From assembly GCA_016868035.1 (NCBI GenBank), contig VGID01000009.1:23881-87880 (forward strand): 64,000 nucleotides of DNA, given 5' to 3'. Position numbers and translations under genes: made by a program. This stretch comes from Betaproteobacteria bacterium. GTDB taxonomy: Bacteria; Pseudomonadota; Gammaproteobacteria; Burkholderiales; SG8-41. The notes beneath the pieces were generated by a model, which was given only the letters and a program-made list of their open reading frames with translations, did no database searches and had not been told where the DNA came from. Each line of letters opens with the position of its first letter. Position 1 is the first letter of the stretch. Positions 4,052 to 50,300 of the stretch are shown here, piece by piece.

Positions 4052-4190
4052 GTTCAAGGTTCAAGGTTCAAGGTTCAAGGTTCAAGGTTCAAGGTTCAAG
4101 GTTCAAGGTTCAAGGTTCAAGGTTCAAGGTTGGAGCGCTACGCGCTTCAGCCGTTCTCACTTTGAACTTTGAACCTTGAACTTTGAACGC
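4052..4190 (+). repeat. heptad palindrome: (GTTCAAG)x11 perfect tandem array plus an inverted arm of ~4 CTTGAAC-like units
   Basis: Tandem units counted directly at 4052-4128; inverted arm ctttgaactttgaaccttgaactttgaac at ~4160-4190. Confidence 0.9.
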
Positions 4191-4213
4191 GGAACGCGCC
4201 GGCGGCGCGTTCC
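4191..4213 (-). terminator. GC-rich hairpin abutting the aldo/keto reductase stop codon (no U-tract)
   Basis: ggaacgcgcc ggc ggcgcgttcc. Confidence 0.35.
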
Positions 4214-5188
4214 TCAACGGAAATCCGTTCCGTAGAGCGCCTCGAGCCGCGCGAGCACTTCCGGCGGCAGCGGTCCCATCTTCTGCGCCTCGAGCGCCTC
4301 GTCGATGTGACTGAGCTCCGCGCTGCCGATGATCGCGCACGAGACGTCCGGGTTCGACAGCACGAAGCGCAGCGCGACCTGCGCGCGCGTGCCCTCGCCC
4401 GCGCCGATCGCGTCGAACACCGCCTTCGTCTTGCGCTCCTCCTCGGCGAGGCCCGTGTTCGCCGTGAGCACGCTTTCGCGCCCGGTGCGCTCGTCCGTGG
4501 CGATGACGCCGGCGCCGAAGATGCGGATCGCCATCACCGCGACCTTGCTCGCACGGCAGGCCGCGATCACTCCGGAGAAGTCGTGCCCGGTCCACGACCC
4601 GGGCATCGCCCGGCCCGCGCTCGGATTGAGCAGGTTGTAATAGACCTGCGCCGAATCGAAACGTCCGCTCCGGATCACCTCGCAAATGGGTGCGGCTTCC
4701 CCGATGGCGGTAATGCCCATGTGGCGGATCAGCCCCTTCTCGCGCAGCCGCTCGAGCCCGTCGGCGACGCCGTTCCGGCCGAGGATCCGCTCCACCGTCA
4801 TCACCCGGCCGCCGGCCTTCGACCCGATCCGGTTGTGAAGCTGCAGCAGGTCCACCGACGAGCGCTTCAGCCGCGCGAGGCTCGCCTTCAGGCGCGCCTC
4901 GATCTGCGCCGGGGTGTCTTCCAGTTTCTCGACATCGAGACCGAACTTGGTCGAGAGATAATGCTTCCCCCCGGCCTCGGGCAGCAGCCGGCCAAGCGCC
5001 TCTTCGGACTTGCCGTTGCCGTATTGCGCGGCGGTGTCGAACCAGTTGATCCCGCCTGCGAGCGCGCGGCGGATCGCTTCGCGCTTTGTCGCGTCATCCT
5101 TGTGGATGAGAATGCCGCCGACACTGCCGGCGCCGAAGACGACTTCCGAGACCTCGATGCCGGTGCGGCCGAAGGTGCGGTATTTCAT
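4214..5188 (-). CDS. aldo/keto reductase
   Basis: MKYRTFGRTGIEVSEVVFGAG N-terminus and overall AKR-like sequence; start moved to the internal Met. Confidence 0.85.
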   Translation of the reverse strand: MKYRTFGRTGIEVSEVVFGAGSVGGILIHKDDATKREAIRRALAGGINWFDTAAQYGNGKSEEALGRLLPEAGGKHYLSTKFGLDVEKLEDTPAQIEARLKASLARLKRSSVDLLQLHNRIGSKAGGRVMTVERILGRNGVADGLERLREKGLIRHMGITAIGEAAPICEVIRSGRFDSAQVYYNLLNPSAGRAMPGSWTGHDFSGVIAACRASKVAVMAIRIFGAGVIATDERTGRESVLTANTGLAEEERKTKAVFDAIGAGEGTRAQVALRFVLSNPDVSCAIIGSAELSHIDEALEAQKMGPLPPEVLARLEALYGTDFR

Positions 5189-5237
5189 GGGGCTTCTCCC
5201 TGGCGGGGCGGAAGCATACATGAGCGCAGGCCATAAA

Positions 5238-5350
5238 CACGAGTGGCTCGCTACCCGAAGGCAAAAGTCCAAAGTCGGACGTCGAAAACATAGGCCGGTA
5301 ACGTAGCCTCACTTTCGCCTTTCGCCTTGCCTTCGGACTTCTGCCTTTGG
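5238..5350 (+). repeat. family-B intergenic repeat (CGAAAGT-type heptads around the core GGTAACGTAGCCTCAC), copy 1
   Basis: About 90% identical by eye to the reverse complement of 34645-34762 over the central ~90 nt. Confidence 0.75.
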
Positions 5351-5444
5351 GCCGCCCCCGATTGACCCGCCGCGCGGTATCCGTCAACCTTTACCGGTCA
5401 CGCGTATCTCGATTCACGCAGTTTTCGCCGCGGGGGAGGAAAAC

Positions 5445-6413
5445 ATGGACCGATTTCGCTGGATAGCAGGATCGTTGTGTCTGGCAACAGCGGGGGCGGC
5501 GCTCGCGCAGGCGCCGAAGTTCCCGGTCAAGCCGGTGCGCATGCTGGTGGGCTTCGCGCCGGGGGGCGCAACCGACATCATCGCGCGGCTGCTCGCGCCG
5601 AGCCTGGGCGAATCGCTCGGCCAGTCCGTGGTGGTCGAGAACCGCCCCGGGGCGAGCAGCCAGATCGCGGGCGAACTGGTCGCGCGCAGCACCCCCGACG
5701 GTCATACGCTGCTCATGACGACGCAGACGCTCATGACCTCGCAGATGATCGAGGGCAAGACCTTCCCCGACCTGACGAAGGACTTCGTAGCGGTATCGCT
5801 CTCCGCCACGAGCCCCCTCATCCTTGTCGTGAATCCATCGCTGCCGGTGAAAACGGCAAAAGAGCTGATCGCGCTCGCCCGCTCGCGCCCCGGCGAGATG
5901 AACTACGGCACCGGCGGGATCGGCACCACGCCGCACATGTCGGGCGAGCTGCTCGCGACGATGGCGAAGCTCAAGCTCGTGCACGTGCCGTTCAAGGGCG
6001 AGGCGCCGGCGCTCGTGGACGTCATCGCGGGGCACGTGCCGATGATGTTCTCGAACATCACCGCCTCGCTTCCCTACGTGCGGGCAGGGCGGCTGCGGAT
6101 GATCGCGCAGACCGGCCTGACACGCTCGCCGGTCCTGCCCGAGGTGCCGACGATGGCCGAATCGGGCCTGCCCGGATTCGAGATCATCGGGTTCTTCGGC
6201 GTGATGGCACCCGCGGGCACGCCGCGCGAGATCGTCGCGCGGCTGAACGGCGAGCTTGCGAAGTCGCTCGCCCGCCCCGACGTGCGGGAGAAATTCACCG
6301 GGCAGGCGCTCGACCCGGGGACGCTCACCGCCGACCAGTTCACCGCCTTCATCAAGGAGCAGGCCGTCAAGTTCGGGAAGGTGATCCGCGATGCGCACAT
6401 CACCGCCAAGTAA
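5445..6413 (+). CDS. Bug family substrate-binding protein (TctC-like)
   Basis: Signal peptide plus FPVKPVRMLVGFAPGGATD motif; 322 aa. Confidence 0.9.
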   Translation: MDRFRWIAGSLCLATAGAALAQAPKFPVKPVRMLVGFAPGGATDIIARLLAPSLGESLGQSVVVENRPGASSQIAGELVARSTPDGHTLLMTTQTLMTSQMIEGKTFPDLTKDFVAVSLSATSPLILVVNPSLPVKTAKELIALARSRPGEMNYGTGGIGTTPHMSGELLATMAKLKLVHVPFKGEAPALVDVIAGHVPMMFSNITASLPYVRAGRLRMIAQTGLTRSPVLPEVPTMAESGLPGFEIIGFFGVMAPAGTPREIVARLNGELAKSLARPDVREKFTGQALDPGTLTADQFTAFIKEQAVKFGKVIRDAHITAK

Positions 6414-6430
6414 CCGCCGACAGTCAGCCG

Positions 6431-7180
6431 TCACGCTCGTCCAGGGCCGCCGTCCTTGCCGGCCGCCCGCGCAACGTACTCGCAGTGCTCGCAGCCGCGG
6501 GCCGGCGGCGGCGGCCCGGGCGCCATGAGCGTCGCGCGGATCGCCGAGAGGGTCTCCTCCACCCAGCCGTCGTCCCCGTCGTGGGGCAGCAGGCTGATCT
6601 TGAACTCGAGCCGGGCGTCGAACCCGGGCCGGTCCTTGCGCCCGTTGCAGTAAACGAACCAGCCCCGCCGGGCGACGGCGAGCCCCTGGCGGCGCAGGAG
6701 CCACTGGTAGAACTCCATCTGCCGCTTGTAGGGGATCTGCCAGTCGGCGTCGATGTCCACCTCGCCGTTCTTCGAGGTGGCTTTGTAGTCGGCGACGATC
6801 AACTCCCCGGTCGCAAGATCGCGCCACAGATCGTCTATGGCCCCGGAGAGCTCGAGCTTGGTCGCCTCGTGCACCGTGCGCACGCCCTTGAAGTTGCTGC
6901 GCCAGGTCTCGAGCTGCGGATGCGCGTGCGGCACGGCGTTGAGCTCCGCCTCGGTCATGAGCGGGTGCGGCCTGCCCTCCTTCCGGTAGCGGTCGAACTC
7001 GCGCTTCAAGAGCTCGTCCACCGCCGAGTTGAGGGTGAACGGGAACCCGGCGGGGCGCCCGATCCCGAGCCGGCGGTCGAGGTAGAAGCAGCGCGGGCAC
7101 TCCATGAATAGCTCAACCTTCGACCGGCTGAGCGGGAAAGGCCGGTCGGCCGCCGGATCGAACAGCTTCGCGCGCGCCAT
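6431..7180 (-). CDS. PD-(D/E)XK (RecB/Cas4-like) nuclease family protein
   Basis: N-terminal CPRC and C-terminal CEHC cysteine pairs; IVADYK (D/ExK) and QMEFYQWLL (QxxxY) motifs; start at MARAKLF. Confidence 0.6.
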   Translation of the reverse strand: MARAKLFDPAADRPFPLSRSKVELFMECPRCFYLDRRLGIGRPAGFPFTLNSAVDELLKREFDRYRKEGRPHPLMTEAELNAVPHAHPQLETWRSNFKGVRTVHEATKLELSGAIDDLWRDLATGELIVADYKATSKNGEVDIDADWQIPYKRQMEFYQWLLRRQGLAVARRGWFVYCNGRKDRPGFDARLEFKISLLPHDGDDGWVEETLSAIRATLMAPGPPPPARGCEHCEYVARAAGKDGGPGRA

Positions 7181-7349
7181 GGCGGATAGTGTAGCCCTTG
7201 TCCGGGCGCCGCAGGCCCTACCTTCCTCTCGCCTTGCCGTCGAGCCTGGTTCCGCCTTCCGGCTCAGGGTCCCGCCGTCACTGCGTCGCCCCACCCGCAA
7301 AAAGACGAATACACTATCGGCCACATACCATGAACTGAGGAACAACATC

Positions 7350-8399
7350 ATGCACGCTGTGCTCACTTACGGCCCCGGCGACATGCGCTACGAGGAGATC
7401 GAGACCCCGAAGCCCGGGCCGGGCGAGGTTCTCGTAAAAGTCGCGCGCGTCGGCATGGGCATCAACGATCCGACGATCGCCGAAGGCCATTGGCCCACCC
7501 GCAGCGACCGGCCCACGGTCGCGGGGCATGAGTTCGCGGGTGTAGCGGTGGCGCTGGGCAAAGGCGCAGAGCGGCACCACGGCATCGCAAGCGGCGACCG
7601 CGTGCTCGCCGAACAGGTCGCATTCTGCCGCGCCTGCTTCTACTGCAGGCGCGGCTGGTACCACCTGTGCGAACGCCCGCAGCTGTTCGGTCTCAACCTC
7701 GACGGCGGCTGGGCCGACTACATGATCTTCCCGGAGAACTCGATCGTCCACCGCCTGCCCGCCGAGATTTCCGACGGGGCCGCGATCGCGCTCGAGTCCA
7801 CCTCGTGCGGGATCTACACCGTGGAGCGCGGCGGCCTGCGCATGGGCGAGACCGTGGTCGTGCTCGGCGGGGGCTTTCTCGGGCTGATCATGGTCCAAGT
7901 GTGCACGATCATGGGCGCGGGGCTCGTCGTGTACTGCGAGGACGACGACCACCGCCTACAGGTGGGCAGCTCGCTCGGGGCGCACGTGACGCTGAGCCTT
8001 CGGCGCGACGACGTGGTGGCGGAAGTACGGCGCCTGACCGGCGGTCTCGGTTGCGATCTCGTCGTGGACCACGGCCAGACCGAGGCGATCGAGCTCGGCT
8101 CGAGGATGCTGCGGAAACGCGGCCGCTTCGTCGTGGGCGCGGCCTACGCCAGCACGAATGCGCCGAAGATCGAGTTCGGCGCGATCTGCAACCAGAACGA
8201 GCTCACGTTCATCGGCAGGACGATGTCCGGTGGCGCGGACGCGGCCTGCTTCGCCCGCGCCATCGAATACGTGCGCCGCGGCGCCATCAAACTCGATCCC
8301 GTCGTGACGCACAACCTGCCGCTCGCGGATTTCCAGCGCGCACTCGATATTTCACGCCGCCGGATCGAGCATGCCATCAAGGTATCGATGACACCGTAA
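7350..8399 (+). CDS. zinc-dependent alcohol dehydrogenase family (MDR) protein
   Basis: GHEFAG motif, structural-zinc Cys cluster CRACFYCRRGWYHLC, and GGGFLG Rossmann motif. Confidence 0.85.
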   Translation: MHAVLTYGPGDMRYEEIETPKPGPGEVLVKVARVGMGINDPTIAEGHWPTRSDRPTVAGHEFAGVAVALGKGAERHHGIASGDRVLAEQVAFCRACFYCRRGWYHLCERPQLFGLNLDGGWADYMIFPENSIVHRLPAEISDGAAIALESTSCGIYTVERGGLRMGETVVVLGGGFLGLIMVQVCTIMGAGLVVYCEDDDHRLQVGSSLGAHVTLSLRRDDVVAEVRRLTGGLGCDLVVDHGQTEAIELGSRMLRKRGRFVVGAAYASTNAPKIEFGAICNQNELTFIGRTMSGGADAACFARAIEYVRRGAIKLDPVVTHNLPLADFQRALDISRRRIEHAIKVSMTP

Positions 8400-8483
8400 A
8401 CGGTGAATGGGGATAATGGGAGACGGCCCGGTCTGTCCCCGCTTACTATCGTCGCAGTCCATCCCCCAGGAAAGGCCGGCACC

Positions 8484-8930: not shown

Positions 8931-9036
8931 GGGGTGAGCGGGGAATTCGAAGGACGCACCTGCGTGCGTCCGAGCCCGCGAACGCCCGACGCGATGCAGC
9001 GCGGCGGGACGGGAGAGGGATGCGCAGCCAGCGTGT

Positions 9037-9157
9037 GTTCCGGGTTCCGAGCTCAAAGTTCCGCGTTCAAAATCATGATCCTTCGTCAAGAACGTTGAAC
9101 CTTGAACTCCGAACGGGCGAAGCCCCCTTCGGAGTCACGACCCACGACTCACGATTC
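9037..9157 (+). repeat. family-A heptad palindrome (GTTC arms, loop, TTGAAC arms, CACGA tail)
   Basis: gttccgggttccgagctcaaagttccgcgttcaaaa / loop ..ccttcgtcaagaa / cgttgaaccttgaactccgaac / tail gtcacgacccacgactcacgattc. Confidence 0.75.
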
Positions 9158-9166
9158 CCGCGTTGG

Positions 9167-17370: not shown

Positions 17371-17377
17371 AGGACGC

Positions 17378-17455
17378 GTGACGAGTAACGACTCACGAAT
17401 CACGACTCACGAACCACGAGTCACGAGTCACGAATGGCGACTGACGGCTGAGCGA
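17378..17455 (+). repeat. CACGAGT-type heptad tract
   Basis: gtgacgagtaacgactcacgaatcacgactcacgaaccacgagtcacgagtcacgaatgg. Confidence 0.75.
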
Positions 17456-20477: not shown

Positions 20478-20693
20478 TTAAGAACCGTTAACAAAATCAA
20501 GAAAAACTAGCCGCAGATACGCGCCGATCAAAATCGAGTAAGGCGTGAGCCGCAAGCAGTGAGCGGAAGAAAGTTGAAACTGGCATTCTCCTCACCGCTT
20601 ACCCCTTACCGCTTACCGGCTTTTTTATCTGCGTCCATCTGGGTGCGTTCATCGGCGGTTTCGAGCTTTCTGGGTTTTTTGATCGCGCTCTAA
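20478..20693. repeat. ~215-bp modular intergenic element, copy 2 (same ends, CGCTTAC-type palindromic core)
   Basis: Ends align with copies 1 and 3, but the core is replaced by a gtaaggcgtgag...ctcaccgcttac hairpin followed by a T-run. Confidence 0.6.
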
Positions 20694-23537: not shown

Positions 23538-24497
23538 ATGCGGCGCAATGACTTCGACGTTACCGACAAGATCCGCACAACCGATGCGATCGACGTCGGC
23601 GACGAGGTCATGCGTCTGTTCCAGGAGGTGTACCAGGGCCGTGCGTCTTCCCGGATCGAGCGCGCCTTCCGGGACATGTCGACGATGTATCACGGGAAGC
23701 ACCGCAACTACCATCCCTGCGACACCGAATACCACGACATCCAGCACGTGCTCGACGTGACGCTCGCGATGGCGCGCCTGCTCGCAGGCTACGAACGCGG
23801 CCGCGAGGGCTACGCGCCGCTGCCGGCGGATTACTTCACCGTCGGGATCATCACCACGCTGTTCCACGACGTCGGGTATCTCCGGCGCCGCCACGACCGC
23901 ACGCACCGCTTCGGCGCCGAATACACGCTCATCCACGTGACGCGGGGATCGCGTTTCCTGCGCCACTATCTCCCGCGAGCCGGATTGACCCGGTATGCGA
24001 AGGCCGCTACGCAGTTGGTGCACTTCACGGGCTACGAGCGCGACCTCGACACGATACGGGTGGACGACCCGGTGCTGCGCCGCGTCGGCGAGATGATCGG
24101 CACCGCCGACATCATTGCGCAGATGTCCGACCGTTGCTACCTGGAGAAGGTGCGGGAGCGCCTCTACCCGGAGTTCGTACTGGGCGGAGTTGCCCGCCGC
24201 AAGCTGCCCGGCGGCAAGACCGTCGTCGTGTTCGAGTCCGCCGACGATCTGGTGCGAAAGACGCCCGAGTTCTTTCGCAACGCCGCGAAACGCCTCGACG
24301 AGAAGCTGCACCGCGCGTATATCTACGCGGAGCGGTACTTCGGCGGCCAGAACCTGTACCTCGAGGAGATGGACAAGAACGTGAAGCATGCCGCGACGGC
24401 GGCCAACACCTCCAGACACCGGCTGCTGCGCCGGACGCCGCCGAGCACGCTGGAGCCGAGCGTGCGCGCGTATCCCGACGACCTCGTCATCTATTGA
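23538..24497 (+). CDS. HD domain-containing protein
   Basis: H..HD signature (YHDIQHVLDV ... TTLFHDVGY); ~320 aa. Confidence 0.6.
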   Translation: MRRNDFDVTDKIRTTDAIDVGDEVMRLFQEVYQGRASSRIERAFRDMSTMYHGKHRNYHPCDTEYHDIQHVLDVTLAMARLLAGYERGREGYAPLPADYFTVGIITTLFHDVGYLRRRHDRTHRFGAEYTLIHVTRGSRFLRHYLPRAGLTRYAKAATQLVHFTGYERDLDTIRVDDPVLRRVGEMIGTADIIAQMSDRCYLEKVRERLYPEFVLGGVARRKLPGGKTVVVFESADDLVRKTPEFFRNAAKRLDEKLHRAYIYAERYFGGQNLYLEEMDKNVKHAATAANTSRHRLLRRTPPSTLEPSVRAYPDDLVIY

Positions 24498-24540
24498 GCG
24501 CGCTCGATAGACGAGGGATGAGGGACCCTCGCCCAGCGCG

Positions 24541-24655
24541 GGTTCCGGGTTTCGGGTTCAAAGTTCCGGGTCCAAGGGCGTGAGCCTTCCTCTGGAGCTT
24601 TGAACCTTGAACGTTGAACTCGCTACGGACCGAAGCACCCTCGCGAGTCACGAGC
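24541..24655 (+). repeat. family-A heptad palindrome
   Basis: ggttccgggtttcgggttcaaagttccgggtccaagg / loop / ctttgaaccttgaacgttgaac / tail gagtcacgagcac. Confidence 0.75.
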
Positions 24656-24664
24656 ACCGCGAAA

Positions 24665-25663: not shown

Positions 25664-26635
25664 ATGAAAGCCATCAAAGCCCCATGCGTGCTGCTCGCCG
25701 CGATGTTTCTGGCAGCACCCCTGTTCGTGAGCGCCCAGCAATATCCGACGAAATCGATCCGGCTGGTCGCTCCGTGGCCTCCTGGCGGCATCACCGATGT
25801 GATCTCCCGCGCGCTGGGCGCCACCCTCTCCGAATCGCTCGGGCAGCCGGTGATCGTGGACAACCGCCCGGGCGCCGCGGGCACGCTCGGCGTTGCCATC
25901 GTCGCGCAGGCGCAGCCCGACGGCTACACGCTGATGATGACCGACGTGCCGAGTCATGCCATCAGCGCGAGCCTCTACACGAAGCTGCCCTACAATCCGA
26001 TCAAGGACATCGAGCCGGTCGCGCTGCCGTCGCGCTCGCCGCTGGTGCTCGTCGTTCATCCGAAATTCGGCATCAACTCGATCCCGAGACTGATCGAGTA
26101 TGCCAAGGCGCGCCCGGGCGAGTTCGCGTTCGCCTCTTCGGGCCCCGGCTCGATCACGCACCTCACGGGGGAGCGCTTCATCCGCGACACCGGGGTGAAG
26201 CTGCTGCACGTACCCTACAAGGGAGGCGCACCCGCCACGGCCGCTCTGGTCGCGGGAGAAACCGGCATGTATTTCTCGTGCATTTCCGCCGCCATTCCCC
26301 ACATCAAGGCGGGAAGGCTGACGCTGCTGGGGATCACCTTGCCGAAGCGCTCGCCGCTCTATCCCGATACTCCGACCGTCTCGGAAGTCATCCCCGGGTT
26401 CGAAATGGGATGCAACACGGGGTTTTTCGCGCCCGGCGGCACGCCGCGGCAAATCGTCGAGCGTCTGCACACCGAAGTGATGAAGGCGGTGCAACAGCCG
26501 AAAATGAAGGACATCCTCACCGCGAACTCGGCGGAACCGGCGCCCTACACGCAGGTGCAGTTCAAGGAGCACGTGGCGAGGGAAATCCGCGACTGGGGCG
26601 CGGTGGTGCGCTCGGCGGGGCTCAAGGTCGACTAG
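25664..26635 (+). CDS. Bug family substrate-binding protein (TctC-like)
   Basis: Signal peptide plus YPTKSIRLVAPWPPGGITD motif. Confidence 0.9.
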   Translation: MKAIKAPCVLLAAMFLAAPLFVSAQQYPTKSIRLVAPWPPGGITDVISRALGATLSESLGQPVIVDNRPGAAGTLGVAIVAQAQPDGYTLMMTDVPSHAISASLYTKLPYNPIKDIEPVALPSRSPLVLVVHPKFGINSIPRLIEYAKARPGEFAFASSGPGSITHLTGERFIRDTGVKLLHVPYKGGAPATAALVAGETGMYFSCISAAIPHIKAGRLTLLGITLPKRSPLYPDTPTVSEVIPGFEMGCNTGFFAPGGTPRQIVERLHTEVMKAVQQPKMKDILTANSAEPAPYTQVQFKEHVAREIRDWGAVVRSAGLKVD

Positions 26636-26801: not shown

Positions 26802-27248
26802 ATGAACAAATCCTTTGCGCGCCGCATCGCCGCAATGAACGCGATGTACCGGCTCTCCGCCCACGACCGCCCGACCCTGCCCGTGGACGTGGCAGACCGC
26901 CTGGTCAAATTCAAGGCCACGCTCCTCGACGAGGTGCATGAGATCGACCAGATCGTCGAGCTCTCGAAAAGCGGTGCGCCTGCAATCGACCTCGCCGTCG
27001 CAGTGGCGGACCTGCTGGGCGACATCGTGGTCTACTGCCGGTCCGAAGCGCTGAAGTACGGCCTGCCGCTGGAGGAAGTGCTCGACATCATCATGGACAG
27101 CAACGAGAGCAAGCTCGGCGCGGACGGCAGCCCGATCTACGACGCGAACGGCAAGTTCCTCAAGGGGCCGAATTACTGGAAGCCGGAACCGAGGATCAAG
27201 GCGCTGCTCGAGCAGCGCGGCCTTCCAGGGCGGAGGGATGAGGATTGA
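26802..27248 (+). CDS. MazG-like all-alpha NTP pyrophosphohydrolase family protein (tentative)
   Basis: ~148 aa helical protein with LLDEVHE and acidic motifs resembling MazG-like/phage pyrophosphatase proteins; its last codons and stop lie in the GAGGATT array. Confidence 0.45.
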   Translation: MNKSFARRIAAMNAMYRLSAHDRPTLPVDVADRLVKFKATLLDEVHEIDQIVELSKSGAPAIDLAVAVADLLGDIVVYCRSEALKYGLPLEEVLDIIMDSNESKLGADGSPIYDANGKFLKGPNYWKPEPRIKALLEQRGLPGRRDED

Positions 27249-27302
27249 GGATTGAGGATTGAGGATTGAGGATTGAGGATTGAGGATTGAGGATTGAGGA
27301 TT
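27240..27302 (+). repeat. (GAGGATT)x9 perfect tandem heptanucleotide array
   Basis: Counted directly; the first unit contains the TGA stop of the upstream CDS (27246-27248). Confidence 0.95.
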
Positions 27303-27340
27303 GAGGGTCGACAGTTCACGAGAACAGCTACGCTTTGTCA

Positions 27341-27400
27341 GTCACGCTCACGATACACGAACATCGAATCACGAGTCACGAGTCACCAGTCACGAGTCAC
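27341..27400 (+). repeat. CACGAGT-type heptad tract
   Basis: gtcacgctcacgatacacgaacatcgaatcacgagtcacgagtcaccagtcacgagtcac. Confidence 0.75.
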
Positions 27401-27437
27401 ATCGTCCGAACGGACGAAATCAAGAAAGAGGCACGGA

Positions 27438-28217: not shown

Positions 28218-28340
28218 TTGTTCAGGGTTCAGGGCTCAAGGTTCCGGGTTCAAAGTCACGAGCCTTCGTCGGAAATGTTGAACTTTGAGCCTCGAACGTT
28301 GAACGTTGAACGGCGGACAAGGCAAAGGCCCCGCCGAGCC
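28218..28340 (+). repeat. family-A heptad palindrome
   Basis: ttgttcagggttcagggctcaaggttccgggttcaaag / loop tcacgagccttcgtcggaaa / tgttgaactttgagcctcgaacgttgaacgttgaac / spacer hairpin / cgtcacgggtcacg. Confidence 0.75.
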
Positions 28341-28503
28341 GCCCGTCACGGGTCACGTCCAGAAGTTTCACATGGTTGACCGGACGCCCCTGTCGGCGGC
28401 ATGATTTTCCTTTGGCCCGTAGCCGGGCACCGAACATCAATAGGCCGGGTCCAAGTATCGGCGGAGAACTCGGCCCGCCAGCCGATTCTGAAGGAGGATC
28501 AAG

Positions 28504-29478
28504 ATGCGTACCCACAAACTGTTAGCCGCAATCGCCATTCCGGTCGCTCTGACCCTGTCGGCGGCGCATGCCCAGCAGGCGTCCACTTTCCCGGACAGAC
28601 CGATCCGGCTCATCATCGGCAGCGCGCCGGGATCGGGCCCAGACATCCTCTCGCGCGTCCTCGCCGAGAGCCTGTACAAGGTGTGGGGCCAGCGGATCGT
28701 CGTGGATTCGCGGCCCGGCGTGGCCGGCATCATCAGCGCGGAACTGGCGCTGCGCGCGAACCCGGACGGCTACACCTGGATGATGCTGACCTCGCAGCTG
28801 TTCGTCGCAACCTCCGTCTATCCCGATCTCAAGTTCAATCTGGACAAGGATTTCGTCTCGATCGCGCTGATCGGAACGGTGCCGTTCGTGCAGATGGTCA
28901 ACCCGCAGGTCCCGGCGAAGTCGATACCCGAGCTGATCGCGCTCGCGAAAAAGTCCCCGGGGCAACTGCGCTACGGATCGGCCGGCGCCGGGGCGAGCGA
29001 GCATCTCTCCGGGGTCATGTTCGCACGCATGACGGGGACCGAAATGCTGCACGTGCCCTACAAGGGCATCGCCCAGGCCATCGCCGACACGCTGTCGAAT
29101 GAGGTGCAGCTCACTTACGCCGTGCTTCCGGCCGCGCGGCCCCACATCGATGCGGGAAGGCTAAGACCGCTCGGCGTCACCACACCCAAGCGCGCCCCGC
29201 TGTTCCCCGACGTGCCGTCCATCTCGGAAGCGGTGCCCGGCTACGCGATGTTCGGCTGGTACAGCCTCGTCGCCCCGAACGGTACGCCCAACGGGATACT
29301 AGCCAAGGTAAGCGCCGAAGTTGTGAAAGCGGTAAGGGAGCCCGAGTTTGCCGAACGGCACAAAGGGCTGGGGGTCGAAGTCCTCGGCGGCGGGCGCCCG
29401 GAGCTCGATAAGTTCCGCTCTGCGGAGAGAAAGCGGATCACCGAACTCGTCAAGGCGGCGGGGGTGCAGATCAAGTAG
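28504..29478 (+). CDS. Bug family substrate-binding protein (TctC-like)
   Basis: Signal peptide plus FPDRPIRLIIGSAPGSGPD motif. Confidence 0.9.
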   Translation: MRTHKLLAAIAIPVALTLSAAHAQQASTFPDRPIRLIIGSAPGSGPDILSRVLAESLYKVWGQRIVVDSRPGVAGIISAELALRANPDGYTWMMLTSQLFVATSVYPDLKFNLDKDFVSIALIGTVPFVQMVNPQVPAKSIPELIALAKKSPGQLRYGSAGAGASEHLSGVMFARMTGTEMLHVPYKGIAQAIADTLSNEVQLTYAVLPAARPHIDAGRLRPLGVTTPKRAPLFPDVPSISEAVPGYAMFGWYSLVAPNGTPNGILAKVSAEVVKAVREPEFAERHKGLGVEVLGGGRPELDKFRSAERKRITELVKAAGVQIK

Positions 29479-30694: not shown

Positions 30695-30723
30695 CGGATG
30701 ACGATTCACGACTCACGACTGAC
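30691..30723 (+). repeat. short CACGAGT-type heptad tract filling the intergenic spacer
   Basis: gtaacggatgacgattcacgactcacgactgac; contains the upstream TAA stop. Confidence 0.6.
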
Positions 30724-30729
30724 AAAGAT

Positions 30730-31761
30730 ATGACCATGCGCTGGCTGGCTGCGGTCCGGATTTGCTTGCTGTCAGCTCTGCAACTGTTCGCGGGATCGGC
30801 CGGCATGGCGGTCGTCGTCGCGCCTCTGCTCTGGCTATGGCCGGATGCCGCATCCGCGCAGAAGTTCCCTTCCAAGCCGCTGCGCATCGTCGTCAGGGCT
30901 CCCCCCGGCGGTGCCGACGATCTGCATGCGCGCGTGATGGCGCCGAGGCTGGGAGACGTCCTCGGCCAGCGGGTGATTCCCGATTACCGCCCCGGCGCGG
31001 GCGGTCTGGTCGCGTGGGAGATCGTCGCGAAGTCGCCGCCCGACGGCTACACGCTGCTGCTCGCCGCTTCGGGGCTCGCCGCGATCCGCAGCCTGCGCGC
31101 CGACGCGACCGCCGTGGATCCATGGCGCGATTTCGCATGGGTCTCGCAGGTCGCGAACTTCCCGCTGGTGCTCACGGTACACCCTTCGCTGCCGACGAAA
31201 ACGCTCAAGGATCTCGTTGCGCTCGCGCGCAAGCGGCCGGGCGAGCTCAACTACGGCTCATCGGGCGTCGGCGCCACGCCGCACCTGGCGGCCGAGTACT
31301 TCAAGGCCGTCGCCAAGATCGACATCCGCCACGTTCCGTACAAGGGCGCGTCCCCGATGTATCTCGACCTGCTGGGCGGGCGCATCGAGATGGGTGCCTC
31401 GGTCATCGGGAGCGCGATCCCGCACATCCGCAACGGCAAGCTGCGCGCGATGGGAGTCACGTCGGTGACGCGCTCCGCGCAGCTGCCGGAGGCCCCGACC
31501 ATCGCGGAAGGGGGATTCCCCGGATTCGAGTTTTTGCCGTTCTACGCGCTGGTGGTGGCCGCCGGCACCCCGCGTGAGATCGTCTCTACGCTCTCCGAAG
31601 CGATCGGGAAGACCATTTCGACGCCGGAAGTGCGCGAGCAGATCATCAGGGCCGGCTCCGAGCCCGCATCCAACACGCCGGAGCAGATGCTGCAACTGGC
31701 GAGAAAAGGCGCCGCGCAGATCGAAGAGATCGTGCGCACGGCCAACATCAAGCCGGAGTAG
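30730..31761 (+). CDS. Bug family substrate-binding protein (TctC-like)
   Basis: Signal/TM N-terminus plus FPSKPLRIVVRAPPGGADD motif. Confidence 0.9.
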   Translation: MTMRWLAAVRICLLSALQLFAGSAGMAVVVAPLLWLWPDAASAQKFPSKPLRIVVRAPPGGADDLHARVMAPRLGDVLGQRVIPDYRPGAGGLVAWEIVAKSPPDGYTLLLAASGLAAIRSLRADATAVDPWRDFAWVSQVANFPLVLTVHPSLPTKTLKDLVALARKRPGELNYGSSGVGATPHLAAEYFKAVAKIDIRHVPYKGASPMYLDLLGGRIEMGASVIGSAIPHIRNGKLRAMGVTSVTRSAQLPEAPTIAEGGFPGFEFLPFYALVVAAGTPREIVSTLSEAIGKTISTPEVREQIIRAGSEPASNTPEQMLQLARKGAAQIEEIVRTANIKPE

Positions 31762-33424: not shown

Positions 33425-33465
33425 GAGTAACGGGGCACGATTCACCAGTCACCAGTCACGATTTT
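33425..33465 (+). repeat. short CACGAGT-type heptad tract
   Basis: gagtaacggggcacgattcaccagtcaccagtcacgatttt. Confidence 0.6.
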
Positions 33466-33851: not shown

Positions 33852-33980
33852 CGTTCCATGTTCGGAGTTCCGAGTTCAAGGTGATGGGTCTTCGTCGGAA
33901 ACTCTGAACATCGGACGTTGAACCTTGAACGTTGAACCTTGAACTACGAGCCGGGCAGAGACCGCTGGCGAGTCACGATT
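33852..33980 (+). repeat. family-A heptad palindrome
   Basis: cgttccatgttcggagttccgagttcaagg / loop tgatgggtcttcgtcggaaa / ctctgaacatcggacgttgaaccttgaacgttgaaccttgaac / tail gagtcacgattcacg, which overlaps the exonuclease stop. Confidence 0.75.
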
Positions 33981-34584
33981 CACGCCGTTCCGGCAGCAGT
34001 CCCAGGCTCTTGAAACGCAGGAACAATTCGCGGCAGGCCCAGGCATCCGTGGCGGCGTAGGTAATCTGCGCCGCAGAGAGCTGGCGCGCGGCCCAGTTCG
34101 ACGTACGGTTGCCTTTGGGTATCCGGAACCCGAGAAACATCCCCGCGAGATTGCGCACTCCTGTCTGGCCGAGGCCGCGGCGGCGCGCGACCACGCCCAG
34201 GTCGAGCACATTCTCCACCGTGAACGGGAATACCAGCTGGAGCTGGCGCAGATCGTGCGCCAGCCCGACGCCGACCTTGATGATGGCCGGCGACGCCAAC
34301 AGCTCGACGAGGGCGGGGAAAACATCCAGGCGATGGAGCTGGAACAGATACACCGCCCGGGCCGTGGCCGCTTGCACCAGGCACGGAAGATGGCTCTCGC
34401 CCTTCCGGAACGAGGGCCGCGTCTCCGTATCGAGCCCGACGACGCGTTCCTGGCGGATGTCCGCCCGCGCCTGCTCCAGGTCGCGCAACGTCGCCACCAG
34501 GGACACCCTGCCCTCATACCGGCGGATCGGCAGGTTCGCGATTTCCTCCCTGGAAATAGAGCGCGGGTTTCCGGCTTGCGACAT
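33973..34584 (-). CDS. 3'-5' exonuclease (DEDDy, RNase D/WRN-like) domain protein
   Basis: VVGLDTETRP (Exo I), NVLDLG region, and YAATDAW (Exo III) motifs. Confidence 0.8.
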   Translation of the reverse strand: MSQAGNPRSISREEIANLPIRRYEGRVSLVATLRDLEQARADIRQERVVGLDTETRPSFRKGESHLPCLVQAATARAVYLFQLHRLDVFPALVELLASPAIIKVGVGLAHDLRQLQLVFPFTVENVLDLGVVARRRGLGQTGVRNLAGMFLGFRIPKGNRTSNWAARQLSAAQITYAATDAWACRELFLRFKSLGLLPERRES

Positions 34585-34644: not shown

Positions 34645-34795
34645 AACCCCAAGTCGGAAGGCGAAAGTCGAAAGGCGAAAGTGAGGCTACGTTACCGCAC
34701 TATACTTTCGACTTCCGACTTTCGACTTTTCCCTTCGGGTAGCGAGTCACTCGTCACCAGTCACCAGTCACGAGCAACGGGCAACGAGAAGTGCT
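34645..34795 (-). repeat. family-B intergenic repeat, copy 2 (inverted relative to copy 1), followed by a CACCAGT/CACGAG heptad tract
   Basis: The reverse complement of 34645-34762 aligns with 5238-5350; the tract is gtcaccagtcaccagtcacgagcaacgggcaacgag. Confidence 0.75.
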
Positions 34796-34833: not shown

Positions 34834-34917
34834 GTGAGAGACCTACAAGGCAGCACCGACCTGCACGGCTCGAACCGCGGATCCACCCGCACCGAAAGGA
34901 AGTTCGACCGGCGCTAG
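34834..34917 (+). CDS. 27-codon micro-ORF (MRDLQGSTDLHGSNRGSTRTERKFDRR) with an extended Shine-Dalgarno; the locus may instead be an sRNA
   Basis: AAAGGAGGTGATCC lies 3 nt upstream of the GTG; an intrinsic terminator follows 23 nt after the stop; not in the ORF track (too short). Confidence 0.3.
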   Translation: MRDLQGSTDLHGSNRGSTRTERKFDRR

Positions 34918-34939: not shown

Positions 34940-34978
34940 GACGCCCCGCGGACCTTGTGTCCCCGGGGCGTCTTTTTT
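34940..34978 (+). terminator. intrinsic terminator (9-bp GC stem plus T6)
   Basis: gacgccccg / cggaccttgtgtccc / cggggcgtc / tttttt. Confidence 0.65.
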
Positions 34979-39338: not shown

Positions 39339-39395
39339 GATGACGAACTACGACTCACGATTCACGATTCACGAGTAACGAGTAACGAACGATCG
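39339..39395 (+). repeat. CACGAGT-type heptad tract
   Basis: gatgacgaactacgactcacgattcacgattcacgagtaacgagtaacgaacg. Confidence 0.75.
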
Positions 39396-39399
39396 GCAA

Positions 39400-42940: not shown

Positions 42941-43048
42941 CGTTCAGGGTGCGGGGTTCGGAGTCCGGTGTTAACAAACCCACCGCGGCAATTTCGAACG
43001 CTGAACCCCGAACGCCGCCAGGCCCCTTCCGAGCCACGAGTCACGAGC
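42941..43048 (+). repeat. family-A heptad palindrome (degenerate), in a divergent promoter region
   Basis: cgttcagggtgcggggttcggagtccgg / loop / cgaacgctgaaccccgaacg / tail gagccacgagtcacgagcc. Confidence 0.65.
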
Positions 43049-43147
43049 CGGCGCGGCCCGCCCCCCCAATTGACCGGCTTAGTGGTAGGCTACTGCCCGC
43101 CGCTCGCGCCCCACCCCGGGTGGCGCGACAACAGAGGAGAACAGGCC

Positions 43148-44128
43148 ATGCCGACCGCATCACACCGTTACTCGTTTGCGTTCCTGGCCGCGCTCCTCGC
43201 GTGTGCGCCGTCCGCGCTCGCGCAGAAGGCGGACTGGCCGGTGAGGCCGATCCGCTACGTCGTGCCGTTCCCGCCCGCGGGCGCGACGGACATCCTCGCG
43301 CGCTTCGTGGCGGAGAAGGTGAGCCCCATGCTGGGCCAGACGGTCGTCGTGGAGAACCGCGCGGGCGCGGCCGGCGCGGTGGGCACCGAGTTCGTCGTGA
43401 AGAGCGCCTCTGACGGCTACACCATATTGATGGCGACCGCCGCCCAGGCGATCAGCGAGACGCTCTACACCAAGCAGCCGTTTTCGTTCGCGCGGGATCT
43501 CGCGCCGGTCGCGCAGGTTGCGCGCGTGCCCAACGTCATGGTGGTCCATCCGTCGCTGCCGGTGAAGAACGTGAAGGATTTCATCGCGCTCGCGAAGTCA
43601 CGGCCGGGCCAGATCAACTTCGCTTCCTCCGGGCCCGGAACGACGCTGCACATGTCGGGCGAGATGTTCAAGCTGATGACCGGGGTGGACATCGTGCACG
43701 TTCCCTACAAGGGCAGTGCCCCGGCGCTGACAGACCTCATCGCGGGGCACGTCTCCGTGATGTGGGACAACTTGCCGGCCGCGATGCCGCACATCAAGAG
43801 CGCGCGGCTGCGCCCGATTGCGATCACCACCGCGGCGCGCTACGCGGGGATGCCGGAACTGCCCACGGTCGCGGAATCCGGCGTGCCCGGCTTCGAGGCG
43901 AGCGCGTGGTTCGGGGTGATGGCGCCGGCAGCGACGTCGAAGGATGTTATTACACGGCTCAACACGGCGATCAACCGCGCGGTCGCACTGCCCGACATGC
44001 GCGAGCGCTTCGAGCAGCAGGGCGCGATTCCCGTGAGCGCGACCCCCGAGGAATTCGGCGCCTTCATCCGCGCCGAGATCGCGAAGTGGGCCAAGGTGGT
44101 GAAGGCATCGGGGGCCAAGGTTGACTGA
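43148..44128 (+). CDS. Bug family substrate-binding protein (TctC-like)
   Basis: Signal peptide plus WPVRPIRYVVPFPPAGATD motif. Confidence 0.9.
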   Translation: MPTASHRYSFAFLAALLACAPSALAQKADWPVRPIRYVVPFPPAGATDILARFVAEKVSPMLGQTVVVENRAGAAGAVGTEFVVKSASDGYTILMATAAQAISETLYTKQPFSFARDLAPVAQVARVPNVMVVHPSLPVKNVKDFIALAKSRPGQINFASSGPGTTLHMSGEMFKLMTGVDIVHVPYKGSAPALTDLIAGHVSVMWDNLPAAMPHIKSARLRPIAITTAARYAGMPELPTVAESGVPGFEASAWFGVMAPAATSKDVITRLNTAINRAVALPDMRERFEQQGAIPVSATPEEFGAFIRAEIAKWAKVVKASGAKVD

Positions 44129-46350: not shown

Positions 46351-46386
46351 TTCGTCGCTCCTTGGTCGCCGCCGCCGGGGCGCGCC

Positions 46387-47277
46387 TTACGGCCGCGCGT
46401 AGACCGGCAGCAAAAATATCCCGTGGTAATCGATGCCGGGAACCGCCGCGCTCACTTCGAGCTCCCAGTAGCGCGGGCGCTCGCCGTCCTTGACGGCGAA
46501 GCGCGTCCCCGGCGCGTGCGCCGGGACCTGGAATTCCAGCATTGCGGCGCCGGACGCATCGGTCGCGAACTCGCGCGCGTCGCGGTAGAGCGCCTCGTGC
46601 ACGACGTGCTGGCTTCGGTCCTTGCCCGAGCCTCGCGTCTCGTAGTACTCCTCGATGCACACGAGCTCGGCTTTCATCCCTTGCCGGTTCTGCAGCGGCC
46701 GGCCTCCGTGGAAGCGCAACGGCAAGGTGCTGCCGGTGAGCAGGGGAAAGCCGCTGAAGGCGACGCGGGTCCGGCCGAACTTTAGATGGCGCAGCAGCAA
46801 ATAGGTTGCATATCCCAGACCGATCGCCAGCGCGACGTCGAAGAGGCCGATGACCAGCCACAGAATCCAGTCCGGCTCGCTCAGCGCGATCAAATGGAAC
46901 GGCGCGAGGAAAAATCCGATCGCTGCGATCGCCGCAAACGCGTGGAGCGCGCGCCCGCGCGTGCCGTCGTCCGCCTCCCGCCGCGCCCACGCGTGCTCGT
47001 AGAGCCACGGCGACGAATGACGCTTGCCCGCGGCCCGGGCGCGGTACGCGGCCGAGCGCAGCGCGAGCAGCGCGAGATAGCCGCCGAGGATCAGGAAGTT
47101 GATGCCAACGAGCAGCGCCGCCAGCGCGTGTTGCCGGGGACGCGCTTCGCCGTGATACCAGACGATTCCCGCGCCGGCGGCGGCGAGCGCCAGGCCCAGC
47201 AGCGCGGCCCAGCCGGGGTAAGTGTGCCGCACGCGCGGGGCGTCGCGGTGCACGCGCGCGTGCCCCGGTGAAGACAT
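46387..47277 (-). CDS. hypothetical membrane protein
   Basis: ~296 aa; 4-5 TM segments then a soluble C-terminal domain; no family recognised. Confidence 0.45.
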   Translation of the reverse strand: MSSPGHARVHRDAPRVRHTYPGWAALLGLALAAAGAGIVWYHGEARPRQHALAALLVGINFLILGGYLALLALRSAAYRARAAGKRHSSPWLYEHAWARREADDGTRGRALHAFAAIAAIGFFLAPFHLIALSEPDWILWLVIGLFDVALAIGLGYATYLLLRHLKFGRTRVAFSGFPLLTGSTLPLRFHGGRPLQNRQGMKAELVCIEEYYETRGSGKDRSQHVVHEALYRDAREFATDASGAAMLEFQVPAHAPGTRFAVKDGERPRYWELEVSAAVPGIDYHGIFLLPVYARP

Positions 47278-47354
47278 CGTTTCGGGTGCGGCCACGTCCT
47301 CTCCCCCGCCGGCAGGCGGCGCCTGCGATCCAAGTGCCGGTATAATAACGCCTT

Positions 47355-50300
47355 TTGATGCTCCATCCCCAGCCGCTCCCGGTGCCGGGGAGCCGTGCAT
47401 GTACCACGCCGTTGCACGGCTCCTCCGACGCGCTCGCACTCGCGCAAATCGCGCGTGCGCGGCGTCCGCTCGCCGTGCTCACCGCCACGGCGCAAGACGC
47501 GCAGCGCCTGCTCGAGGAGCTGCCTTTCTTCGACCCGGGGCTGAAGGTCCGTCTGTTCCCCGACTGGGAAACGCTGCCCTACGACCAGCTCTCGCCCCAT
47601 CACGACCTGGTCTCCGAGCGGCTTGCCACCCTCTACGAGCTCACGCAGCGAGCGCTCGACGTCGCGCTCGTGCCGGTGACGACCGCGCTCTACCGTCTTG
47701 CACCCGCCGATTACCTTGCCGCGCGCTCATTTCACTTCCGCCAGGGCGCGCGGCTTGCACCGGAAGCGCTGCGCGCCCAGTTCGTGACCGCGGGCTACAC
47801 GCACGTGACGCAGGTCGTCGCACCGGGCGAATACTGGGTGCGCGGGGGACTCATCGACCTCTTCCCGACGGGCAGCGCGGTGCCCTACCGCATCGAGCTC
47901 GACGACGAGCTCGTGGCGAGCATTCGCAGCTTCGACGTGGACACCCAGCGCTCGATCTACAAGGTGAACGAGGTGCGGCTGCTGCCCGCGCGCGAGTTTC
48001 CGTTGGACGAGGAGGGCCAGACGCGGTTCCGCCGCAACTTCCGGGAGCGGTTCGAGGGCGACCCCTCCAGGAGCCGCGTCTACAAGGACGTCTCCAAGGG
48101 CGTGCCCTGCGCGGGAATCGAGTACTACCTTCCGCTCTTCTTCGAGAGCACCGCGCGCATCACCGATTACCTGCCGCCGGAGACGCTGCTTTGCGTGCAG
48201 CCGGGGCTGCAGCACGCGATCGAGCAGTTCTGGAGCGACACGCATGCGCGCTACGCGATGCTGCGCGGCGACCGCGCCAGCCCGGTGCTCCCGCCGAATG
48301 ATCTGTTCCTCACCACCGACGAATTCTTCGGCGCGATCAAGCCCTACGCGCGCATAGAGCTGCGCACCGTTCAAGGTTCCACGTTCAATGTTCAAGGTTC
48401 AACATTCAAAGATCGAGATTCGAACGCGCAACCCGCAACCCTGGACCTTGAACCCGGAACCTTGAACCTTGAACCCGGAACTGCGGCGGGCGCGGCGACG
48501 GCCGCGTTGCCGCCGCTGGCGGTCGAGCGTCGGGCGGACGACCCGCTGCACCGGCTGCGCGCGTTCGCCGCCGCATTTCCCGGGCGCGTGCTGGTGCTCG
48601 CGGAAGGCGCCGGGCGGCGCGAGACCATGCTCGAGTACTTCCGCGAGTACCGCCTCGAGCCCGCGCCGGTCGAGGGCTACGCGCAGGCGCTCGCCCGCGC
48701 CGAGCGCCTGCTGCTCGCCGTGGGCCCGCCGCACGCGGGCTTCGTGCTTCCCGATCCCGCGCTTGCGGTCGTCACCGAGAACGAGCTCTACGCCCACCAG
48801 GCGCGCCCGCGGCGCGAGCGCGACGGGGCGCGCCGCGTATCCGCCGAGAACATGCTGCGCGACCTCTCCGAGGTCAAGGTAGGCGACCCGGTGGTGCATG
48901 AAATCCACGGCGTGGGCCGCTACCAGGGCCTCGTCACTCTGGACCTCGGCGAAGGCGAGACCGAGTTCCTTCAGCTCGAGTACGCCGGCGCCGACCGGCT
49001 CTACGTGCCGGTCTCGAGCCTGCATCTCGTCGGCCGCTACAGCGGCGCGCCCGCGGATGCCGCGCCCCTGCACCAGCTCGGCAGCGGGCAATGGGAGAAG
49101 GCGCGCCGCAAGGCGGCGCGGCAGGTGCGCGACACGGCGGCGGAGCTGCTCGAGCTCTACGCGCAGCGCGCGGCGCGGCGCGGCCATGCGTTCAACGTGA
49201 CGCCGCACGACTTCGAGGCATTCTGCGACGACTTCCCGTTCGAGGAGACCCACGACCAGGCCTCGGCGGTGAACGCCGTGGTGGAGGACCTGCGCAGCGG
49301 CAAGCCGATGGATCGGCTGATCTGCGGCGACGTCGGCTTCGGCAAGACCGAGGTCGCGCTGCGCGCGGCGTTCGTGGCGGTGGACGACGGCAAGCAGGTG
49401 GTGGTGCTGGTGCCGACCACGCTGCTCGCCGAGCAGCATTTCAACACCTTTTCCGACCGCTTCGCCGAGTGGCCGGTGAGAATCGCGGAGCTCTCGCGCT
49501 TCCGCTCCGGCAAGGAGACGGCCGAGGCCCTCTCCGGGCTCGCCGAAGGCCGCATCGACATCGCGATCGGCACCCACAAGCTGCTCTCGCGTGACGTGAA
49601 GCTGAAGAACCTGGGGCTGGTGATCGTGGACGAGGAGCACCGCTTCGGCGTGCGGCACAAGGAGCGGTTGAAGGCGCTGCGCGCCGAAGTGGACGTGCTC
49701 ACCCTCACCGCGACGCCGATCCCGCGCACGCTCGCGATGGCGCTCGAGGGCCTGCGTGATTTCTCGGTGATCGCCACCGCTCCCGAGCGGCGGCTCGCGA
49801 TCAAGACCTTCGTGGCGCGCCACAGCAGGGCGTTGATCCGCGAGGCGGCGCTGCGCGAATTGAAGCGCGGCGGGCAGATCTACTATCTGCACAACGACAT
49901 CGATACCATCGGTCAGGCCGAGCAGATGCTCGCGAAGCTGCTGCCGGAAGCGCGCATCCGCGTCGCGCACGGCAGGATCCGCGAGCGCGAACTCGAGCAC
50001 GTGATGCGCGACTTCTACCAGGGCCGCTTCAACGTCCTCCTGTGCACGACCATCATCGAGAGCGGCATCGACGTTCCGGCCGCCAACACCATCATCATCC
50101 ACCGCGCCGACAAGTTCGGGCTCGCGCAATTGCACCAGCTGCGCGGGCGCGTCGGGCGCTCGCACCACCAGGCCTACGCCTACCTGCTGCTGCCCGACGA
50201 GGGCGCCATCACCGCGCAGGCAAAGAAGCGGCTGGACGCGATCCAGATGATGGAGGAGCTCGGCTCGGGCTTTTTCCTCGCGATGCACGACCTCGAGATC

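Follow-up and report, generated by a model that had tools for sequence, protein, structure and literature searches.

What are the palindromes built from tandem heptanucleotides that are dispersed through a 64,000-nt stretch of a betaproteobacterial genome, how did they come to occupy unrelated sites, and why do so many of them face the same way? The stretch analysed here (positions 23,881 to 87,880 of contig VGID01000009.1, assembly GCA_016868035.1, referred to throughout as the window) has a G+C content of 66% and is of betaproteobacterial origin; no species representative searched encodes an Mfd protein more than 78% identical to the one encoded here, and the best match is a Burkholderiales metagenome-assembled genome (MAG). 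We favor the interpretation, at a probability of about 55%, that the elements belong, without an open reading frame (ORF) of their own, to a widespread class of tandem-heptad repeats that form hairpins, of the kind described as short tandemly repeated repetitive sequences (STRR) or long simple sequence repeats (LSSRs), and that they are either derivatives of hairpins that carry cargo genes or landing pads for them.

The elements that we refer to as A-type have a common order of parts, with a GTTCNNG arm, a loop, an NTTGAAC arm, a small GC-rich hairpin, and then two to four CACGAGT-like units. Seven are present in the window (A1–A7, numbered by position), all of them where the initial annotation had placed them, and two more (A0a and A0b) lie in the 10 kb upstream; a motif inventory of both strands of the window revealed no GTTCAAG/CTTGAAC hairpins beyond the seven. 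According to the gene calls, four of the window copies are in convergent intergenic regions, one is between co-directional genes, one is in a divergent region, and one is inside mfd:

A1, 4048..4215, + strand: (GTTCAAG)x11 left arm, 27-nt loop, four NTTGAAC units and a perfect 10-bp GC hairpin, with no CACGAGT tail; between convergent genes.
A2, 9037..9160, + strand: heptad hairpin with loop CCTTCGTCAAGAA, GC hairpin, and a CACGAC/CACGAT tail; convergent region.
A3, 24537..24660, + strand: heptad hairpin, spacer, and tail GAGTCACGAGCAC; convergent region.
A4, 28218..28356, + strand: heptad hairpin with loop CCTTCGTCGGAAA, GC hairpin, and degenerate tail GTCACGGGTCACG; between two + strand genes.
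A5, 33852..33985, + strand: heptad hairpin with loop TCTTCGTCGGAAA, spacer, and tail GAGTCACGATTCACG; convergent region, the tail overlapping the end of a - strand gene.
A6, 42941..43050, + strand: GC-shifted heptad hairpin (GGGGTTC / GAACCCC), spacer, and tail CCACGAGTCACGAG; divergent region.
A7, 48369..48482, + strand: in-frame heptad palindrome within the mfd ORF, giving ~38 extra residues in a variable inter-domain linker.

The layout that had been proposed for all copies holds as the architecture of the family, but not for every member, as A1 has the GC hairpin and lacks the CACGAST tail and the mfd copy lacks both spacer and tail. The loop that had been reported as common to three copies, YCTTCGTCRRRAA, is indeed shared by those at 9037, 28218, and 33852 (A2, A4, and A5; family D5), and a different loop, TTGGAGCGC...GTTCTCAC, is common to A1 (4048) and the upstream copy A0a. 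Because these non-heptad loops, spacers, and tails recur at unrelated intergenic sites, the copies have spread by copying rather than by separate local origins, and the A copies at these sites go back to common templates.

The copy within mfd is in frame and contributes its ~38 residues (TVQGSTFNVQGSTFKDRDSNAQPATLDLEPGTLNLEPGT) to a linker that is of different lengths in different betaproteobacteria. The mfd gene encoding the 78%-identical protein has a GTTTCAA/CTGAAAC palindrome at the same position (locus L119, 5687-5763), and other heptads are found in the same linker (about residues 327–376 of the window Mfd) in loci L120 (11017-11057) and L164 (10980-11030), such that heptad arrays seem to be tolerated in this inter-domain linker. 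CACGAGT arrays are essentially missing from 80 betaproteobacterial mfd loci (1.59 Mb) and are therefore specific to this lineage.

Periodicity of 7 nt clearly exceeds chance in the window. Period-7 self-similarity was detected in 16 regions (727 nt) against 0–2 regions for each of the other periods from 4 to 12, and at a laxer threshold there are 37 period-7 regions compared to a mean of 6.05 (maximum 11) in the 20 second-order Markov simulations that served as the chance model. As in LSSRs and STRR, arrays of the 7-nt unit extend beyond chance length, are mostly intergenic, are of several unit types (GTTCAAG, CACGAGT, GAGGATT, CGAAAGT, and CGCTTAC), include inverted arrays able to form hairpins, and differ in unit number between samples. 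The GAGGATT, CGAAAGT, and CGCTTAC units had been listed in the initial annotation together with ACAGGAT, whose units recur every 9–10 nt rather than every 7.

The population derives from a set of freshwater metagenomes, 3300020193, 3300020198, and 3300020200 at JGI and ERZ27247963 at ENA. The same sequence is present in several freshwater metagenome assemblies, and those from other samples at ENA and JGI are 99.985–100% identical through A3–A7, the solo CACGAGT arrays (class B), and the nested palindrome S3 (both classes listed below), with A6 and S3 each unchanged in an independent assembly. As the elements are alike base for base in independent metagenome assemblies, they are not assembly artefacts, and this explanation is ruled out. 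One contig from another sample matches the window over 10.7 kb with 0 mismatches and a single 7-nt gap, corresponding to one GTTCAAG unit fewer in A1 (i.e. 10 units rather than the 11 of the window, where Tandem Repeats Finder reports (GTTCAAG)x11.4 at 100% identity at 4052-4131). The arms thus grow and shrink in 7-nt steps, and the restriction of the sole between-sample indel to one GTTCAAG unit points to replication slippage. No usable synteny was available among the loci fetched for comparing orthologous intergenic regions with relatives. Short-read contigs from other samples end in or at heptad elements (L427 at window position 33944, in A5, and L423 at 1842, in S1), as multi-copy repeats are expected to cause; the heptad elements thus break short-read assemblies.

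The hairpin formed by inverted arrays reads alike on both strands, so that only the loop and the CACGAGT tail show which way an element faces. Each of the 11 CACGAGT arrays of the window is on the + strand, with flanking genes of either direction, in agreement with the shared orientation noted initially; the motif CACGAnnCACGA occurs 13 times on the + strand and 0 times on the - strand, these being 11 separate arrays (two-sided binomial p ~0.001). Six of the arrays are solo arrays, designated as class B:

B1, 17373..17451, + strand: solo CACGAGT-type array of ~9 units between two - strand genes; family D1.
B2, 27333..27402, + strand: solo CACGAGT array, 36 nt upstream of a + strand start codon (27438).
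B3, 30698..30726, + strand: short CACGACT array directly upstream of a + strand gene.
B4, 33435..33464, + strand: CACGATT/CACCAGT array between two + strand genes.
B5, 34745..34790, + strand: CACCAGT/CACGAGC tail following a CGAAAGT palindrome.
B6, 39348..39392, + strand: solo CACGATT/AACGAGT array between two - strand genes.

B1 and B6 are located within runs of - strand genes and B2–B4 within + strand runs, and the arrays are + oriented in both, so the bias does not follow transcription. The 10 kb upstream contains two further + oriented tails and one long array of the reversed type (3 kb upstream of the window). In the window and upstream region together about 19 of the 21 orientable elements have one orientation, the exceptions being the reversed-type array and one CGAAAGT palindrome.

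The units are not confined to this host. Exact (GTTCAAG)x4 and (CACGANT)x4 arrays are each found in many phyla among the matches listed in a genome scan, and several MAGs carry both; loci with both units often hold arrays of further heptads, frequently as inverted pairs, and dozens of units occur elsewhere. The composite pattern TTGAACNTTGAAC...AGTCACGA gave 17 hits in 185,579 genomes, mostly a GTTCAAG hairpin with a chance occurrence of AGTCACGA; the same hairpin-plus-tail layout is present in locus L208 and a CACGA-type tail also in L212. On a Bryobacterales chromosome (L264, 4380-5780) there are five CACGANT arrays in one orientation within 1.4 kb, interleaved with repeats of ~250–600 nt and other short tandem arrays (TTGTTCACGA, ATTTCCC), and this stretch may be a tandemly duplicated composite element.

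In other genomes heptad arms flank small genes. One such gene, in a Burkholderiales MAG, has an ACTCGTG array immediately on one side and a CACGAAT array on the other; its 120-residue product belongs to PF05635 (23S rRNA intervening sequence protein, IVP) and TIGR02436 (four helix bundle protein) and has distant similarity to Avd of diversity-generating retroelements. A profile hidden Markov model (HMM) search identified 13 IVP genes in the loci fetched by heptad pattern, most of them between inverted-complement arrays within ~30 nt, and none in the 1.59 Mb of mfd loci. We also picked 80 metagenome loci by the IVP protein alone (a single protein query), and arrays are present on both sides of the IVP gene in 28 of the 67 loci with enough flanking sequence, as inverted complements in 24 of the 28. 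In a controlled comparison within the same loci, inverted heptad arrays flank 20 of 64 IVP ORFs versus 3 of 161 other small ORFs. The arms flanking IVP genes in other genomes include GTTCAAG and CACGAGT, and a Chloroflexia contig contains an IVP gene inside GTTCAAG arms together with two solo GTTCAAG hairpins that have a common loop, as in the A family of the window.

A second gene family is found in a similar setting. About 8 kb upstream of window position 1 there is a gene for a 139-residue GxxExxY protein (TIGR04256, PDDEXK_3, with a PD-(D/E)XK fold; L420 2199-2618, - strand), inserted between ispF and ispD, with a G+C content of 55% compared to 67% for the locus, and with inverted CTTGGCGT tandem units on either side. 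In L169 and L061, homologues are situated between inverted 9–10-nt tandem units, and the arms around GxxExxY genes are overall inverted tandem units of 8–10 nt; no solo copies of the CTTGGCG arms are present in the window. The searchable literature, which is incomplete, yielded no paper linking the IVP or GxxExxY families to tandem-repeat arms.

These associations suggest how the window copies could have arisen. They may be empty derivatives of cargo hairpins, or landing pads for them, which persist as selfish or near-neutral DNA in untranslated regions (UTRs) and in one protein linker. When transcribed in UTRs, their long imperfect stems might act in RNA processing or stability, by analogy with the excision of rRNA intervening sequences (IVSs) by RNase III, rather than in intrinsic termination, and the strand bias of CACGAGT could reflect insertion or retention tied to the direction of replication. 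A more ambitious version, which we regard as possible though doubtful, is that heptad-arm hairpins are mobile across phyla with an IVP gene or a GxxExxY nuclease-fold gene in the loop, that the solo hairpins are their non-autonomous derivatives or homing targets, and that they spread via single-stranded or hairpin DNA at the replication fork; spread of this type would explain the one-strand orientation.

Several observations weigh against derivation from cargo hairpins and against an orientation set by replication. There is no IVP gene in the window by tblastn or HMM search, and no window element has a PF05635 or TIGR04256 gene between its arms; the link to cargo therefore comes from other genomes. 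No transposase, target-site duplication, or other signature of mobility was identified for the A type. The proposal that the arms can fold stands to the extent that hairpins are predicted for all copies, but only the segment 4080-4225 (A1, z -9.8) and the mfd copy (z -3.4) clearly exceed shuffled sequences, the remaining A copies having z values of -0.4 to -1.9. No compensatory covariation of arms was detected when a copy's own arm was compared with the arms of other copies (p = 0.31), and the sense/antisense folding asymmetry of the IVP hairpins is not significant. The direction of replication through the window rests on weak hints only, namely the distribution of GGGNAGGG (1 on the + strand, 8 on the - strand in the window), a replication component of the GC skew at third codon positions (GC3) of -0.007, and the location of a group II intron on the - strand, which together suggest that the - strand is the leading strand here. 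Among 94 loci of other genomes array orientation and GC skew are not significantly associated overall, and gene orientation confounds the p = 0.025 obtained post hoc for a high-GC subset. CACGAGT arrays elsewhere are usually inverted pairs, so that one-strand solo arrays are not general to the unit, and as these arrays are mostly inverted pairs there are about as many concordant as discordant pairs when their orientation is compared within loci of other genomes (22 versus 21).

Additional heptad elements accompany the A and B types. Palindromes of CGCTTAC are also among the element families of the window, and there are four copies of a nested palindrome of 230–250 nt, designated as a shell, one upstream (S0) and three in the window (S1–S3), all four in one orientation. 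The outer arms of the shells are conserved, whereas the inner arms are swapped, two copies having ACAGGATT units and two having GGTGAGC/CCGCTTA heptads; outside of the heptads the copies are 84–91% identical to each other:

S1, 1775..2025, + strand: ~250-nt shell with outer arms of 10-nt units, terminal inverted repeats of the CTTAGAGCC type, and inner ACAGGATT units; folding z -5.4.
S2, 20481..20690, + strand: the same shell with inner arms of GTGAGCG / CCGCTTA heptads.
S3, 59067..59295, + strand: shell copy, 84–91% identical to S1.
5264..5332, - strand: inverted copy of a CGAAAGT-type palindrome, its loop matching that of 34651-34731 in reverse complement; RNA of the - strand folds better.
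27232..27312, + strand: perfect (TGAGGAT)x9.7 array (~10 units) that overlaps the stop codon of the upstream gene, with no inverted partner.
34651..34731, + strand: CGAAAGT-type palindrome with AAGTCGA and ACTTTCG arms; folding z -3.6.
61564..61711, no strand assigned: AAGCGGT / ACCGCTT heptad arms with a loop of ~80 nt.

The CGAAAGT palindrome and its CACCAGT tail adjoin, on their downstream side, an uncalled 27-codon ORF (window 34834-34917, + strand) with a GTG start and a strong GGAGG ribosome-binding site, and a terminator-like hairpin with a T-run is located at 34953-34978. The palindrome at 61564-61711 adjoins the 3' end of a complete group II intron (61847-63856, - strand; Rfam matches to D1–D4 at 63609-63829 and to D5–D6 at 61958-62032) with a 582-residue ORF at 62036-63784, and an 86-kb JGI contig ends inside this intron, near window position 62083. 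The Rfam matches in the window are the group II intron and sub-threshold hits of shell hairpins to a miRNA-precursor model, and no Rfam family matched the A-type elements at gathering or E-value thresholds.

Two further features concern neighboring genes. A single in-frame TAG (window 51415-51417) divides the phosphoenolpyruvate (PEP) carboxylase gene into two ORFs, of 164 and 753 residues; this codon falls just past the conserved ...TAHPTEV motif and is present in all of the assemblies compared. At least nine paralogues of TctC (Bug-family) periplasmic binding proteins are present in ~74 kb (repeat segments at 3222-3331, 5612-5721, 25834-25943, 28680-28785, 30957-31066, 43327-43436, and others), and these paralogues account for the long diverged direct repeats seen in the repeat scan.

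The elements can also be explained in other ways. One is that the CACGAGT repeats, and perhaps other units, form, at the DNA or RNA level, a multi-site platform for a regulator, a nucleoid or replication-associated protein, or a single-strand binder that spans ~7 nt (e.g. a cold-shock or S1 domain), the hairpins being incidental. Several of the solo arrays are 6–45 nt upstream of start codons, the TAACTGA repeats of Beggiatoaceae are similarly placed upstream of start codons, with cold-shock, S1, and CsrA proteins proposed as their binders (PMC4679880), and the independence of the strand bias from transcription is consistent with a DNA motif oriented by replication. We nonetheless think this unlikely, as approximately half of the arrays are next to stop codons in convergent regions, relative to neighboring genes the arrays occur in both sense and antisense, the units of a single array drift in sequence, and no candidate binder was identified.

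Alternatively, each array could have arisen in place by slippage on a chance duplication of a heptamer, as an immobile and functionless simple sequence repeat (SSR). Polymorphism by one 7-nt unit is seen directly in A1, other genomes contain dozens of different units, and heptamers are reported to be the most common unit of long SSRs in many bacterial genomes, those of Burkholderia ranking among the richest (Mrazek 2007, according to PMC4679880 and PMC4692102). Independent origins are improbable all the same, given the constant order of modules, the non-repetitive loops and spacers common to unrelated sites, the similarity of the shells outside of their heptads, arms that are always inverted complements, and the strand bias of CACGAGT.

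A role as unconventional terminators or as 3'-end stabilizers, selected at gene ends and oriented by the upstream + strand gene, draws on the A hairpins: a + strand gene ends 10–107 nt before the left arm in seven of the eight intergenic A copies, and the + strand RNA folds better than the - strand RNA in seven of the nine A copies, small counts in both cases. With a + gene ending upstream in seven of eight copies, transcription may set the orientation of the A hairpins taken alone. No copy is followed by a T-tract, however, no terminator-like site coincides with a copy, and such sites are at or below the number in shuffled sequences, as anticipated by the initial annotation, which did not regard the elements as simply terminators; intrinsic terminators, with a GC-rich stem and a T-tract, are rejected at every copy. 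One copy is furthermore in a divergent promoter region and another inside mfd, and solo CACGAGT arrays in - strand operons have the wrong orientation, all of which makes selection at gene ends improbable.

It is more improbable still that these are repetitive extragenic palindromes (REPs) or their hairpin-forming doublets (REPINs), moved by a REP-associated tyrosine transposase (RAYT, of the IS200/IS605-type Y1 class) encoded elsewhere in the genome, even though the elements are high-copy intergenic palindromes biased to one strand over ~74 kb, and Y1 transposases act on single-stranded DNA at the fork, such that insertions are biased by replication direction and orientation would be explained: the arms are variable-number heptads with no conserved 20–40-nt REP core or fixed flanking tetranucleotide (only loops and tails are conserved), no transposase, RAYT, or Y1_Tnp gene is present within the ~74 kb of window and upstream sequence, and the associated genes elsewhere are IVP and GxxExxY rather than RAYTs.

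Membership without an ORF in the tandem-heptad hairpin class, by derivation from or as targets of cargo hairpins, is thus the reading that we prefer. Heptameric repeats have been known as the commonest long SSR class since 2007 and STRR since 1990, and to our knowledge neither has an accepted origin or function. The window provides a clean case for their study, with subfamilies that have conserved non-repeat parts, a measurable polymorphism by slippage, a heptad insertion in frame within the conserved Mfd protein, and arrays strongly biased to one strand. The link between heptad hairpins and IVP or GxxExxY genes is testable and could join three puzzles, the heptamer excess, the rRNA intervening sequences, and the stand-alone Avd-like proteins. 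If heptad hairpins do form a mobile, cargo-carrying class across phyla, this would give a role to IVP and GxxExxY, which are abundant small proteins in very large families, as well as a mechanism for the long-unexplained heptamer excess of bacteria.

How, then, do the elements compare with known systems? They resemble the palindromes of REP, BIME (bacterial interspersed mosaic element), and REPIN-RAYT systems in being short, abundant, and intergenic, often at gene 3' ends, and differ in the missing fixed core, the variable number of heptads in the arms, and the lack of a RAYT within ~74 kb. The shells are similar to miniature inverted-repeat transposable elements (MITEs) in having terminal inverted repeats (CTTAGAGCC...) and dispersed copies that are 84–91% identical, but their inner arms are swapped and no parent insertion sequence (IS) or clear target-site duplication was identified; the A type has no terminal inverted repeats, target-site duplication, or related IS. 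A parallel in structure is the 23S rRNA IVS with an S23p (PF05635) ORF, of which that of Coxiella is regarded as a selfish element and is excised by RNase III (PMC4990558). The heptad hairpins with IVP genes in other genomes are likewise composed of a stem and a small ORF of the same protein family, whereas the window copies have no ORF and are outside of rRNA.

Heptameric LSSRs include GGGAATC in Xanthomonas, GGGGATT in Nostoc, and TAACTGA in Beggiatoaceae; such repeats are mostly intergenic, with some inverted pairs and lengths that differ between relatives (PMC4692102, PMC2700814, PMC4679880), and elements of four and five heptamers are described in Geobacter (PMC2700814). The window has the excess heptamer periodicity of these repeats, and its TGAGGAT array resembles the GGGAATC/GGGGATT type; the reports treat single arrays or G-quadruplex potential and describe no conserved loops or tails, nested shells, or cargo genes.

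The STRR of heterocystous cyanobacteria are tandem 7-bp repeats that form intergenic hairpins, e.g. between hupS and hupL, and have no known function (PMC2670836); an STRR has also been reported within a structural RNA gene, according to the title of Vioque 1997 (cited in PMC4046671). The suggestion in the initial annotation that the heptad-periodic architecture belongs to no named family was overstated, since tandem 7-bp intergenic hairpins are known in cyanobacteria and heptameric LSSRs are likewise described. No description of the composite (heptad hairpin, small GC hairpin, and one-strand CACGAGT tail) and its strand bias was found in the literature searched, and the composite module order and the bias do not appear in the STRR description as far as it is available. 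The window elements are not STRR in the strict sense (STRR1–3 in a cyanobacterial host), as the host is a betaproteobacterium and the unit sequences differ. They share with STRR the tandem 7-bp units of several types per genome, the intergenic location, and the inverted arrays that form hairpins, and the STRR inside a structural RNA gene parallels the in-frame insertion in mfd. Tandem-heptad hairpin repeats are thus of a known kind, and the window elements are a variant of it with a composite layout.

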